From: a virus
Lineage: Duplodnaviria > Heunggongvirae > Uroviricota > Caudoviricetes
Direction: 5' to 3' (one strand)
Length of the DNA: 19,823 nucleotides
Virus record (IMG/VR): IMGVR_UViG_2585427795_000005
Shown here: piece by piece, positions 105 through 3,939 of the stretch
How positions within the stretch are numbered: the stretch's first letter is position 1
Layout: each line of letters starts with the position of its first letter
Notes under the pieces: model-generated
Databases searched by the model: none
Told to the model about the DNA's origin: nothing
Seen by the model: only the letters and a program-made list of their open reading frames with translations
Position numbers and translations under genes: made by a program

Positions 105-354
105 AGTGACGTAAAACCGTGTTGAGGCCAACGCCCATAATGCGGGCAGTTGCCCGGCATCCAACGCCATTCATGGCCATATCAATGATTTTCTGGTGCG
201 TACCGGGTTGAGAAGCGGTGTAAGTGAACTGCAGTTGCCATGTTTTACGGCAGTGAGAGCAGAGATAGCGCTGATGTCCGGCGGTGCTTTTGCCGTTACG
301 CACCACCCCGTCAGTAGCTGAACAGGAGGGACAGCTGATAGAAACAGAAGCCAC
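79..354 (-). CDS. insA: IS1 InsA, transposition inhibitor / N-terminal part of the InsAB' transposase
   Basis: 91-aa translation [18 protein letters not shown]...LKNSGRSR matches the IS1 InsA sequence as I recall it; zinc-finger CxxC...CxxC plus HTH. Confidence 0.93.
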
Positions 355-382
355 TGGAGCACCTCAAAAACACCATCATACA

Positions 383-980
383 CTAAATCAGTAAGTTGGC
401 AGCATCACCGATGATGTTTATATATGACGCTATCAGCGATGAGTCATCACGACTATCCACTTCACAAGCCATTGCCCTGATGTAGTCGGCGCTGGCAACG
501 TTGTTGTATTCCGTCGCAAAGCAACAGAGTAACGTCAGAACATGCTCTGTCGTTATTTCGCTCCAATTGATGTTGAAAAATTCATCGCCTTTTTTATCGT
601 GTTCGGAATCGAAGATGCTTTGGTGGAGGATGTATTTGCCGGATTCCTTGCGCGGTAACTTGATTGCTTTCTGGCGTTCCAGCTCCTTATAAATCTGCAT
701 TGCCTCAATTAGTACCGGCCTGCCGTTCATGAAGGGATCGCGCAACCTTACACGCTGGCCAACTCGACCAGTAATAAAGCTGTTTTCCTCTTCCACCAGC
801 ACGATAAAACCCTTTTCCTCTTTTTCTCGCAATTCGCGCAGCAGCTGGAGTTCCATGTCGCGGCGGCGTTCAGGGTAGCTGGTCCGCTCAGCCATTATCA
901 GCTCGTTATTGATCCATGCAGCAGTCATTGACGCCGGTTTGCCGACGCTCATCGAAACAACGCATATTTTCTTATCCATA
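383..980 (-). CDS. Hypothetical backbone protein, 3' end truncated by the IS1 insertion; occupies the position I recall for P1 mat, downstream of ref
   Basis: ORF with ATG at 980 preceded by AGGGG (the track start at 1006 is GTG). The last eight codons (GDAANLLI, then stop at 383..385) are encoded by the IS1 terminal repeat, so the native C-terminus is lost. Confidence 0.5.
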
Positions 981-1167
981 GCGCCCCTACAAAAAAGAAA
1001 AGCCACCAGCGGCGGCTTAGCAATACAACTGAAGGTAGCGCCCGGTACTCAGACTGTGCCGTCCATGGAATATTTGAAAAGGGATCCATCCGTACCGGGC
1101 GTGTGATGATTCTGACTGAAGTCACTTGTCAGTTGTCAATCATTTATCATTAAAAATAATATATTTA

Positions 1168-1728
1168 TTAGTGCATGATGTTTGCCATCTCATAGGCGTC
1201 AGCCAGTAACTCCATCTCTGACTTGTTCAGCAGGGTGAATTCTTTCTTGCCTCCAACCACACCATCGGCATGAACAGGGACCAGCCAGGGGTATTTTGCT
1301 CTTACTTCAGCCGGTGCTGCATGCTGGTGGTGCCATCTACAAAGTGGCAATTGCTTTTTATGACAACCCGGCGCGGTACGACCAGCGATATGGTGCAGAG
1401 ACACCTCATTAGATATTACTCCATGCATATAGCAGGCAATGCAGGGGAGAGCGCCAAGAGCATTGGCGATGCGCCGTTCCTCCGCCGTTGGTGTTCTCCC
1501 CTTCAAGCCACGAGATTTTATTTTTACAGCGCTTTTCCGCGTTTTGCTGGCTGGTGGGCGCTCTTTCTGTTTAGCGATACGGCGGTCGATAGTATCTCGC
1601 ATTTTCTGATATTGAGATTCTCGCCAGACCGGATCAGCCAACTTCTCCCGTTGCCGAGCGATCGCTCGTTCTCTGGCTGCCTTCTGCCACTTGCGGCACT
1701 GTTCAATTTTTTGTTCGATTGTTTTCAT
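1168..1728 (-). CDS. ref: Ref, recombination enhancement function (HNH-type endonuclease)
   Basis: 186-aa translation MKTIEQKIEQCRKWQ...; Cys/His HNH-like motifs (CIACYMHG...HHIAG...CHKKQLPLCRWHH); size and position downstream of cre as in P1; C1 operator upstream. Confidence 0.85.
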   Translation of the reverse strand: MKTIEQKIEQCRKWQKAARERAIARQREKLADPVWRESQYQKMRDTIDRRIAKQKERPPASKTRKSAVKIKSRGLKGRTPTAEERRIANALGALPCIACYMHGVISNEVSLHHIAGRTAPGCHKKQLPLCRWHHQHAAPAEVRAKYPWLVPVHADGVVGGKKEFTLLNKSEMELLADAYEMANIMH

Positions 1729-1843: not shown

Positions 1844-1909
1844 GGTAGATATTTTGTTTATCGCGAATCACATTTTTTCACTTCAGTACCTGTGTGCTAT
1901 ACTCCTTCT

Positions 1910-1920
1910 TGATTGATTGG
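1910..1920 (-). repeat. Copy 1 of a recurring 11-mer (minus strand CCAATCAATCA), followed by AAGGAG
   Basis: Exact 11-mer also at 3609..3619 and 16947..16957; here followed by AAGGAG ... GTGAAAAAATG, but the ATG is immediately followed by TGA. Confidence 0.6.
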
Positions 1921-2337: not shown

Positions 2338-3369
2338 CTAATCACCATCTTCCAGCAGGCGCACCATTGCCCCCGTTTCACTATCCAGATTACGGATATA
2401 GTTCATGACAATATTTACGTTGGTCCAGCCACCAGCTTGCATGATCTCCGGTATTGAAACTCCGGCGCGGGCCATATCTCGCGCGGCTCCGACACGGGCA
2501 CTGTGTCCAGACCAGGCCAGGTACCTCTGACCAGAGTCATCCTTAGCCCCGTAAATCAATCGGTGAGTTGCTTCAAAAATCCCTTCCAGGGCGCGAGTTG
2601 ATAGCTGGCTGGTGGATGATGGCGAGGCAACACCATTTTTTCTGACCCGGCAAAACAAGTAGTTATTCGGATCATCAGCCACACCAGAGACAGAAATCCA
2701 TCGCTCGACCAGTTTAGTTACCCCCAGGCTAAGTGCCTTCTCTACACCTGCGGTGCTAACCAGCGTTTTCGTTCTGCCAATATGGATTAACATTCTCCCA
2801 CCGTCAGTACGTGAGATATCTTTAACCCTGATCCTGGCAATTTCGGCTATACGTAACAGGGTGTTATAAGCAATCCCCAGAAATGCCAGATTACGTATAT
2901 CCTGGCAGCGATCGCTATTTTCCATGAGTGAACGAACCTGGTCGAAATCAGTGCGTTCGAACGCTAGTGCCTGTTTTGCACGTTCACCGGCATCAACGTT
3001 TTCTTTTCGGATCCGCCGCATGACCAGTGAAACAGCGTTGCTGTCACTTGGTCGTGGCAGCCCGGACCGACGATGAAGCATGTTTAGCTGGCCCAAATGT
3101 TGCTGGATAGTTTTTACTGCCAGACCGCGCGCCTGAAGATATAGAAGATAATCGCGAACATCTTCAGGTTCTGCGGGAAACCATTTCCGGTTATTCAACT
3201 TGCACCATGCCGCCCACGACCGGCAAACGGACAGAAGCATTTTCCAGGTATGCTCAGAAAACGCCTGGCGATCCCTGAACATGTCCATCAGGTTCTTGCG
3301 AACCTCATCACTCGTTGCATCGACCGGTAATGCAGGCAAATTTTGGTGTACGGTCAGTAAATTGGACAT
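2338..3369 (-). CDS. cre: Cre site-specific tyrosine recombinase
   Basis: 343-aa translation MSNLLTVHQNLPALPVDATSDEVRKNLMDMFRDRQAFSEHTWK...MVRLLEDGD is recognisably P1 Cre with a few substitutions; loxP lies about 410 bp upstream. Confidence 0.97.
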   Translation of the reverse strand: MSNLLTVHQNLPALPVDATSDEVRKNLMDMFRDRQAFSEHTWKMLLSVCRSWAAWCKLNNRKWFPAEPEDVRDYLLYLQARGLAVKTIQQHLGQLNMLHRRSGLPRPSDSNAVSLVMRRIRKENVDAGERAKQALAFERTDFDQVRSLMENSDRCQDIRNLAFLGIAYNTLLRIAEIARIRVKDISRTDGGRMLIHIGRTKTLVSTAGVEKALSLGVTKLVERWISVSGVADDPNNYLFCRVRKNGVASPSSTSQLSTRALEGIFEATHRLIYGAKDDSGQRYLAWSGHSARVGAARDMARAGVSIPEIMQAGGWTNVNIVMNYIRNLDSETGAMVRLLEDGD

Positions 3370-3376
3370 TTAACAC

Positions 3377-3598
3377 TCAGATAATGGTTTTAAGTAAAGT
3401 GTACAGGATCGGCTCTGCCTTTACCTGTTTATGGTTCTCGTCATAGAAACGCCAGCGACCGCGCGTGCGTTCTATTTTCTCTTCACCGCGCGATAATGAC
3501 AGTTGACAACTATCACAATCAAACCCTTTTGCCCGCCAGTAACCACGGTTTTTCTCAAGCTCAATATGAGTGGACACTTTAGCAGCTGAATATCCCAT
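3377..3598 (-). CDS. Possible small ORF (73 aa) in the cre upstream region
   Basis: ATG preceded by AGAGGTG and by the conserved CCAATCAATCA element; ends 8 bp before the cre start. I do not recall an annotated P1 gene here, so it may be regulatory sequence. Confidence 0.25.
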   Translation of the reverse strand: MGYSAAKVSTHIELEKNRGYWRAKGFDCDSCQLSLSRGEEKIERTRGRWRFYDENHKQVKAEPILYTLLKTII

Positions 3599-3608
3599 TT
3601 TTCACCTC

Positions 3609-3619
3609 TGATTGATTGG
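3609..3619 (-). repeat. Copy 2 of the recurring 11-mer (minus strand CCAATCAATCA-GAGGTGAAAAATG)
   Basis: Exact 11-mer; followed by an SD and the ATG of the 73-aa ORF. Confidence 0.6.
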
Positions 3620-3779
3620 TGGTGCTAAGTGCGCTACGCGAAATCTGGAGCACTAACACTGCCAACATTTCGCAGATTTTACGTAGCGCAACCTTGATCA
3701 AATGATCACTATTTGACCTGATAAGGTATTGAACTGTATGGATTTACAGGTAAATTGATCATGTTCAATAACCCTTAAG

Positions 3780-3813
3780 ATAACTTCGTATAATGTATGC
3801 TATACGAAGTTAT
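3780..3813. other. loxP: loxP recombination site
   Basis: Exact ATAACTTCGTATA-ATGTATGC-TATACGAAGTTAT (13-bp inverted repeats around an 8-bp spacer). Confidence 0.98.
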
Positions 3814-3856
3814 TAGGTCCGAAGAGGAGTTTACGTCCAGCTGCGCACAAAAATCA

Positions 3857-3873
3857 AGAATTATTAGAGCAAT
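3857..3873 (-). promoter_or_regulatory. C1 operator in the immC region between loxP and coi
   Basis: Minus strand ATTGCTCTAATAATTCT (14/17). Confidence 0.65.
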
Positions 3874-3939
3874 AAATTTTGAGAGAAAAATCCCACTCCA
3901 CCAGCTAAAAACTGGATTGTTTTTCATAGTTGTTTGACA

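Follow-up and report, generated by a model that had tools for sequence, protein, structure and literature searches.

The gene cra and its promoter region upstream of cre in a P1-like phage-plasmid, with a conserved inverted repeat over pR1

Introduction

The small gene cra has been on record as ORF1 since 1986, directly upstream of cre, one half of the widely used Cre-loxP tool. In the 1986 P1 cre sequence (X03453), it appears as a CDS at 256..477, 'pot. ORF1 (aa 1-73)', together with a ribosome-binding site and the promoters pR1, pR2 and pR3. The P1 genome record (AF234172) places cra at 207..428, with the product AAQ13977 and the description 'putative cre associated function', and cre at 436..1467. 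Its further features are three Dam sites 'within the regulatory region of cre', a leftward promoter, P2coi, and a site for LexA, and it equates P3cre, P2cre and P1cre with pR1, pR2 and pR3. The P7 record gives the same gene as upf0.2. In the literature, cra has been drawn between loxP and cre (PMC2409434), and a 2025 RNA-seq preprint on P1vir lists both cra and cre among under-induced genes (10.64898/2025.12.28.696737).

Here, we describe the corresponding region of a tailed-phage sequence of 19,823 nt (IMG/VR record IMGVR_UViG_2585427795_000005), the whole of which is referred to below as the window. A megablast search with 3300..3850 returns 24 phage records. The names that these give to the ORF are cra, 'Cre-associated protein', 'Cra' or 'pot. 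ORF1'. The region is additionally matched by 708 plasmids, where the ORF goes by the names 'hypothetical protein', cra or 'creatininase'. The last of these names does not suit a protein of only 73 aa with no match in Pfam or NCBIfam at E ≤ 1, and it most likely arose through wrong expansion of the symbol 'cra'.

Layout of the locus

The window is a P1-like phage-plasmid in reversed orientation, with cre and cra on the minus strand (Table 1). The order loxP, cra, 7 nt, cre is shared with P1 and P7, as are the Shine-Dalgarno (SD) sequence and the promoters. Cra has 73 aa in all three, and the protein of the window is 95-96% identical to those of P1 and P7; it departs from P1 Cra at three amino acids, including a rare R28C found in 4 of 81 loci. 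It matches phrog_804 with E = 6.5e-34 over profile positions 1-72 of 72. Translation of cra would be set by the SD, followed by AAAA (3599..3602) and the ATG (3596..3598), a spacing of 4 nt. On the plus strand, beyond loxP, lie a 69-aa coi-like ORF and a 283-aa c1-like ORF.

Table 1. Coordinates of cre, cra and the control elements up to loxP in the window
Feature	Position	Strand	Remarks
cre (343 aa), downstream cistron	2338..3369	-	99.4% identical to P1 Cre
cra (ORF1 of Sternberg 1986; upf0.2 in P7)	3377..3598	-	73 aa, ATG start, PHROG 804
pR3 / P1cre, inside cra 3' end	3381..3405	-	corresponds to AF234172 400..424
pR2 / P2cre, inside cra	3493..3522	-	corresponds to AF234172 283..312; P1-type lineage only
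cra Shine-Dalgarno AGAGGTG	3603..3609	-	sequence read; X03453 ribosome-binding site 245..252 corresponds
Leader box CCAATCAATCA	3609..3619	-	conserved; CCAATCA invariant, 10 lineages
Inverted-repeat arm, cra side	3630..3647	.	sense CAGATTTCGCGTAGCGCA; kept in 10 lineages
Inverted-repeat arm, loxP side	3673..3690	.	sense TGCGCTACGTAAAATCTG; holds pR1 -10
pR1 / P3cre -10 TAAAAT	3676..3681	-	annotated -10 in AF234172 124..129 and X03453 175..180
pR1 / P3cre -35 TTGATC, Dam site GATC 3696-3699	3696..3701	-	corresponds to AF234172 104..109 (Dam site 3)
Second GATC octamer unit GTGATC (GATC 3704-3707), alternative pR1 -35	3704..3709	-	X03453: two -35s, 8 bp apart
LexA box	3732..3751 (CTGTAAATCCATACAG at 3734..3749)	.	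corresponds to AF234172 46..65, annotated LexA site
Dam site 1, cre regulatory region	3757..3760	.	corresponds to AF234172 37..40
loxP (13-8-13)	3780..3813	.	sequence and repeat search

An earlier note on the window had described several of these elements, and its account of the 73-aa ORF with an ATG start, of the SD 4 nt ahead of it and of the two GATC sites within 3695..3711 is borne out. The 17-bp inverted repeat that it described (3631..3647 against 3673..3689) is likewise exact in its arms, with 15/17 positions complementary and a 25-nt spacer. The ORF does end close to the cre start, as was said, but the '8 bp' quoted is a difference of coordinates, the real gap being 7 nt (GTGTTAA). The assumption that P1 records show no gene at this place was mistaken, since AF234172, X03453 and the P7 record all annotate one and the published drawing shows cra there. 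The idea of an overlooked small protein therefore survives in its second half: purifying selection, diverged lineages and a wider family speak for a protein, but an annotated gene has not been overlooked. The feature is a rediscovery of annotated P1 elements, in that the ORF, SD, promoters and Dam sites are already known in P1. Two things alone go further than the three records: where the inverted repeat lies and how well it is conserved, and how widely Cra-like proteins are distributed.

More diverged P1-like elements have the same general plan. They encode a 71-aa Cra homologue, 7 nt upstream of a Cre homologue that is ~80% identical to Cre, and share with the window a loxP-type site, the LexA box, TGATCA sites and the inverted repeat. 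The LexA box, which overlaps the leftward promoter P2coi, is conserved in all lineages compared. Unlike the window, the diverged elements have additional coding sequence between the inverted repeat and cra: a gene of 356 aa (phrog_7674), which overlaps the cra start by ATGA, often accompanied by one of 68 aa (phrog_19934). The window lacks both. A second copy of the CCAATCAATCA-type leader box precedes the 356-aa gene in one such locus (L088).

Selection on the cra reading frame

The ORF is intact in 92/92 complete related loci (73 aa in the P1 type, 71 aa in the diverged lineages), a count biased towards intact copies because the viral loci are the best-scoring 80 of 115; a scan of genome contigs yielded 3 loci. 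Among the 81 P1-type loci, 30 variants divide into 17 synonymous and 13 non-synonymous changes and are distributed 6:7:17 over the three codon positions; the same variants read in either alternative frame give 6-7 synonymous changes. With ~48 synonymous and 171 non-synonymous sites in cra, our own arithmetic yields a pN/pS of ~0.2 within the P1 type.

Over longer distances, the constraint is visible against near-saturated synonymous sites. In the diverged lineages, from Salmonella, Klebsiella, Cronobacter and other Enterobacteriaceae, Cra is 56-65% identical, and comparisons between lineages give pS of 0.42-0.80 versus pN of 0.06-0.29. Where it is computable, dN/dS is 0.07-0.34 for cra and 0.05-0.09 for cre, such that cra is the looser of the two while still constrained. 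The window-P1 and window-P7 pairs hold few changes, 1 synonymous versus 3-4 non-synonymous, and their dN/dS is near 1. On the strength of these sequence comparisons, cra is a genuine protein-coding gene under purifying selection. Its translation has indirect support from this selection, from the confident fold model described below and from the transcription reported in the P1vir RNA-seq preprint. The ORF is at the same time regulatory, because the annotated cre promoters pR2 and pR3 sit inside it.

These results bear on the other possibility raised in the earlier note, of regulatory DNA that happens to be open. The regulatory part is right, given pR2/P2cre and pR3/P1cre within the ORF; the frame is selected, however, and not merely open. 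The comparison of reading-frame conservation with third-codon drift that the note had proposed comes out in favour of a gene, the variants being rich in third positions and mostly synonymous in the cra frame only. Frame-breaking indels in close relatives, which it had named as the mark of regulatory DNA, do occur but are uncommon: of 60 plasmids sampled, about 4 are affected, and in two of these the change falls in an A5 homopolymer.

The broken alleles come from a 60-row spread of the plasmid matches, in which eight plasmids with odd lengths or no annotated gene were inspected. Four of the eight have a broken cra. Two of these differ in the length of the homopolymer (A5 to A4 and A5 to A6), which could reflect errors in sequencing; the third has a stop in place of W49, and the fourth has an insertion of the Tn3 family. 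Among the same eight, two carry a 1-bp deletion in non-coding DNA and one an extra 8-bp unit upstream of cra; locus L111 retains an intact cra, and no frame-breaking change was found in it. In protein clusters, several cra alleles with in-frame deletions are seen in addition, and one with a nonsense change at codon 58. The broken copies in some natural plasmids, a minority, mean that cra is dispensable for plasmid survival.

The pR1 promoter and its Dam sites

The cra-cre unit would be read from pR1 (P3cre), with cra as its first cistron. Sternberg et al. 1986 (J Mol Biol) reportedly linked pR1 to Dam regulation. The window retains the relevant parts of the P1 promoter, with an identical -10 (TAAAAT) and an identical GATC-bearing -35 (TTGATC), and the link to Dam regulation is stated in the feature notes of AF234172 and X03453. 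As judged from this match, which is the comparison with the P1 cre promoter region that the note had suggested, the GATC pair of the window is the pair of annotated Dam methylation sites in the pR1/P3cre -35.

The pair consists of two 8-bp units, with sense sequences GTGATCAT and TTGATCAA, which provide the two alternative -35 hexamers of pR1. The number of units varies: the window and its nearest relatives have two, P1 and P7 three and NZ_AP027874 four; the first unit of P1 is mutated to GACC. The region is 8 bp shorter in the window than in P1 because it has one unit fewer there, a difference in unit number that also separates the window from P7. The spacing of the pR1 hexamers is poor, at 14 or 22 nt, and a sigma-70 consensus scan of 3300..3900 reports no promoter. 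The transcription start used below for the geometry of the repeat is accordingly derived from the annotated -10. A resemblance of the GATC octamers to an FNR-type site was considered and rejected by eye, as they do not fit TTGAT-N4-ATCAA.

A conserved inverted repeat over pR1

A repeat search extends the inverted repeat to 18 nt per arm (3630-3647 and 3673-3690), with 16/18 positions complementary across the 25-nt spacer. An 18-mer with at least 16 matches arises in 0/300 dinucleotide-preserving shuffles of 3370..3775, the best shuffle reaching 14, and the repeat is therefore not a product of chance. It is not among the features of the AF234172, X03453 and P7 records. The repeat is kept in 10 lineages with nearly invariant arms (GCTACG, CAGA-TT-CGT-GCGCA); across these lineages 87% of cells are paired and 9/18 pairs never vary. 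The spacer is held in length (23-25 nt) and not in sequence, and it has no conserved loop sequence. The gene that comes next varies (that of 68 aa, that of 356 aa, or cra), and the repeat stands at the head of the operon in every case.

A search of the 19.8-kb window for further half-sites finds the two arms and one weak match with 2 mismatches only. Near the distant Cra homologues described below, a search for a matching inverted repeat yields only unrelated repeats and Rep3 iterons. The arms agree with 8/13 positions of a lox arm by eye, but they have the wrong orientation and lie 25 bp apart, so that they are not taken as degenerate Cre half-sites.

The repeat is probably an operator of pR1 for a putative dimeric or bivalent regulator, as its position and conservation lead us to infer. 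If transcription from pR1 starts ~7 nt past the annotated -10, the start would fall just inside the spacer and the repeat would span ~-21 to +40. The half-sites are 43 bp apart, centre to centre, or about four helical turns. Cra itself is one candidate for the regulator that would act there.

The main rival to an operator is a role in RNA: the repeat would form a hairpin in the cra-cre 5' leader and act on stability, processing or translation of transcripts starting upstream of it. We consider it rather unlikely. The sense RNA does fold, at -32.4 kcal/mol (z = -2.1), and some changes between lineages keep pairing: a mismatch is replaced by G-U, and two pairs are altered on both sides. A possible unannotated rightward promoter, TTGAAC-16-TAAATC on the sense strand over the LexA box, could supply a transcript that includes both arms. 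Transcripts from pR1 would not serve, however: the annotated -10 lies within the loxP-side (5') arm and, with a start ~7 nt on, the pR1 mRNA would lack that arm. Covariation is not above the level of shuffles (0.090 versus 0.086, with 210/500 shuffles reaching the observed value), a measure that cannot separate a DNA from an RNA role because the arms vary too little. Two central pairs are persistently mismatched, in most lineages, and the spacer lacks a conserved loop sequence. The sole Rfam match, to a eukaryotic snoRNA model, scores 19.4 bits where the gathering score is 35 (E = 0.88), and is rejected as due to chance. An intrinsic terminator is excluded as well: 3300..3900 contains 0 terminator-like sites, the loop would be 25 nt, and neither strand has a T-run after it. 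The operator assignment thus stays the preferred one for the repeat.

The junction between cra and cre

The distance from the cra stop to the cre ATG is 7 nt in 11/11 lineages, while the sequence of the gap differs and the SD for cre is weak or absent. The last cra codons also make up both hexamers of pR3, whose -35 (TGTACA) is invariant and whose -10 is TATAAT-like in every lineage. The sequence of pR2, by comparison, is not kept in the diverged lineages. The fixed gap may tie Cre synthesis to the junction in either of two ways, by hand-over of ribosomes from cra or through the geometry of pR3, which would produce a very short leader. We infer that the junction fits translational coupling and pR3 geometry alike.

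In an extreme form of coupling, cra would act only in cis, handing ribosomes to the SD-poor cre start, and its peptide would have no role. The constancy of the gap in the face of an unconserved sequence and little or no SD is what such a mechanism would leave behind, and the ATGA overlap of the upstream 356-aa gene with cra, along with several natural in-frame deletion alleles that retain the C-terminus and the position of the stop, is in keeping with it. It is nonetheless very unlikely. Residues are conserved and not length alone, as dN/dS values of 0.07-0.34 demonstrate, and the motifs of the protein persist in relatives that have no downstream cre. Moreover, pR3 within cra would yield a cre mRNA that is uncoupled from cra translation.

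The Cra family, its predicted fold and its function

Two profile searches define the wider family. An exhaustive HMMER search of 1.84 billion representatives gives 15 matches, with distant relatives of 65-79 aa among them, and a word-indexed search gives 130, including Cra-like proteins of 65-81 aa. Throughout the distant relatives the motif E-[IL]-E-K-x-x-G-Y-W-R-A-K-G-F recurs, as do a Trp that never varies and, at the C-terminus, L-x-x-L-L-K-x-I. Those encoded by SSU5-like phage-plasmids and by Kuttervirus phages share this motif, the Trp and the C-terminal pattern with Cra at 26-47% identity.

An AlphaFold model built with 54 sequences has a pLDDT of 88 and a pTM of 0.73, the pLDDT of an earlier model being 70. 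The predicted fold opens with two helices at the N-terminus, continues with a sheet of five strands and closes with a helix at the C-terminus. Cra is small and basic, and the compact fold is predicted with confidence. Sequence searches of Pfam, NCBIfam, PADLOC and the sequences in the PDB return no match to Cra, and neither model finds a PDB structure with E < 0.001 by Foldseek, the best E values being 0.33-0.63. The structural neighbours in BFVD are all uncharacterised phage proteins, and the PHROGs matches are to families of unknown function only.

The genomic settings of the distant relatives are varied. In SSU5-like phage-plasmids, the Cra-like gene ends an operon just before iterons and a Rep3 initiator. 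In another phage-plasmid, it has umuDC-like genes on one side and a Rep3 region on the other. In the Salmonella phage ST-W77 (Kuttervirus), it adjoins a pyrimidine-dimer glycosylase gene. A search for an adjacent recombinase beside four distant relatives finds none; with these relatives away from recombinases, the label 'Cre-associated' fits only the P1-like neighbourhood. The 356-aa gene found near one homologue (L097) has no relation to the gene of equal length in the P1-like lineages.

The label nevertheless invites the proposal that Cra assists Cre at loxP, as an accessory or directionality factor in the manner of Xis-type proteins. Like these factors, Cra is small, basic and encoded beside a tyrosine recombinase, directly upstream of it in every P1-like lineage, and annotations use the term 'Cre-associated'; similarity in sequence or fold between the two was not found. 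Cre is known to recombine loxP without accessory proteins, both in vitro and in heterologous cells, and this general knowledge counts against a need for such a factor. The family-wide neighbours point away from it too, being Rep3 origins, umuDC-like genes or a pyrimidine-dimer glycosylase gene and not recombinases. With no winged-helix or Xis-like neighbour in the Foldseek search and no Pfam match, we hold the proposal to be highly improbable.

Weakest of all is the view that the ORF is non-coding, a stretch of cre regulatory DNA (pR2, pR3) that lacks stop codons by chance: the two annotated promoters inside it, the near-neutral pairwise ratios of the window with P1 and P7 and the frameshift or nonsense alleles of some natural plasmids are set against a third-position and synonymous bias confined to the cra frame in 81 loci, diverged lineages that retain the protein despite near-saturated synonymous sites and keep Cra without a conserved pR2, distant homologues in phages with no adjoining cre and a confident fold model, leaving a view that is scarcely credible and that the variant and dN/dS analyses have already largely refuted.

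Conclusions

The combined reading is, in our estimation, highly probable: the ORF is cra, a real gene and the first cistron read from pR1, the GATC sites are Dam sites, the inverted repeat is likely an operator, and the 7-nt gap would tie Cre synthesis to the end of cra. What is gained over the existing records is a selected gene with a confident and unmatched predicted fold, a name, 'Cre-associated', that fails family-wide, and a conserved inverted repeat over pR1.

A bolder proposal, which must count as unlikely, is that the candidate new operator allows a phage factor, possibly Cra, to autoregulate cra-cre on top of Dam and LexA, with Cra founding a family of regulators with its own fold. 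If this were true, the dosage of Cre would be set by three inputs within a single 200-bp region, and the Cra family would be one of small phage-plasmid regulators located beside maintenance loci such as lox sites and Rep3 origins.

A conserved gene upstream of cra in diverged lineages

The interval between the inverted repeat and cra is occupied in every diverged P1-like lineage by a conserved gene of phrog_7674, invariably 356 aa long and 71-88% identical, which overlaps the start of cra via an ATGA. Several of the same lineages additionally carry a 68-aa gene (phrog_19934), and both genes are absent from the window and from the P1-type relatives examined. A leader box is kept in all lineages 12-25 nt upstream of the start codon of the first gene of the operon, and in L088, a diverged P1-like locus, it precedes the second gene as well. 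In other lineages the leader of the 356-aa gene contains a match to the box that precedes cra in P1, suggestive of a deletion in the P1 lineage.

Features of the cra-cre region in the window and in related loci
Feature	Sequence	Location	Remark
cre		window 2338..3369 (-)	
cra		window 3377..3598 (-)	73 aa
cra codon 28		window 3515..3517	
Direct repeat D1	CGCCAGCGACCGCG / CGCCAGTAACCACG	window 3450..3463 and 3534..3547	inside cra
Leader box	CCAATCAATCA	window 3609..3619; L088 about 1668..1678 and 1907..1917	conserved leader sequence
8-bp GATC unit	TTGATCAN	window 3694..3709; L001/L003 90..113; L110 (NZ_AP027874)	pR1 -35 region
Repeat I2		window 3727..3770	imperfect palindrome
68-aa gene		L088 1688..1894	several diverged lineages
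356-aa gene		L088 1934..3004	likewise L087, L089-L093, L099-L103
Cra-like gene / iteron region		L094 4214..4822; L098 4220..4573	SSU5-like phage-plasmids
lox spacer	ACACACAT	L088 (lox site 1467..1500)	Salmonella lineage
lox spacer	GCGTACAT	L103	
lox spacer	GCGTTCAT	one locus among L004-L093	
lox arm variant	TTAACTTCGTATA	L092 (lox site about 1693..1726)	at first base

Natural alleles and database names of cra

Several natural cra alleles have in-frame internal deletions that retain the C-terminus and the position of the stop (proteins P0005-P0007, P0014 and P0034). In P0034, RGYW is fused to RFY; each of these two peptide segments is encoded at one copy of D1. Null alleles are found in some complete plasmids (L107, L108, L109 and L112) and comprise frameshifts, both -1 and +1, at an A5 run in codons 15-17, a nonsense change at W49, and an insertion of a Tn3-family element accompanied by removal of cre. 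Residue 28 is Cys in the window versus Arg in almost all relatives, the underlying CGT-to-TGT change being present in 4 of 81 P1-type loci. Many copies of the 73-aa Cra are labelled 'creatininase' at NCBI, and neither Pfam nor NCBIfam returned an enzyme family match for it; this label and a name given to cre look like propagated annotation errors.

Neighboring maintenance loci

Natural lox variants combine the loxP arms with 8-bp spacers other than the GCATACAT of the window, and the Cre homologues at such loci are ~80% identical to Cre. In SSU5-like phage-plasmids, a Cra-like gene ends directly before a field of CCACTGTAGTGAGTA-type iterons, followed by a divergent Rep3 initiator gene. Phage-plasmid Cra-like genes thus lie beside maintenance loci: lox for the P1-likes, origins for the SSU5-likes.

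Promoter elements upstream of cra-cre

The GATC-bearing unit in the -35 region of pR1, an annotated cre promoter, varies in copy number, with two copies in the window, three in P1 and P7, and four in one plasmid (L110); in P1, the first of the three is mutated to GACC. With every unit gained or lost, the pR1 -35 is displaced by 8 bp and the number of Dam sites rises or falls by one. The LexA box lies within an extended imperfect palindrome (I2; 21-nt arms, 76%) that presents TTGAAC on each strand. The leftward copy is the annotated -35 of P2coi, and the rightward copy is followed 16 nt downstream by TAAATC, an arrangement that, as read from the sequence, looks like a candidate unannotated LexA-covered promoter directed at cra-cre. 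A transcript from this putative promoter would include the entire inverted repeat.
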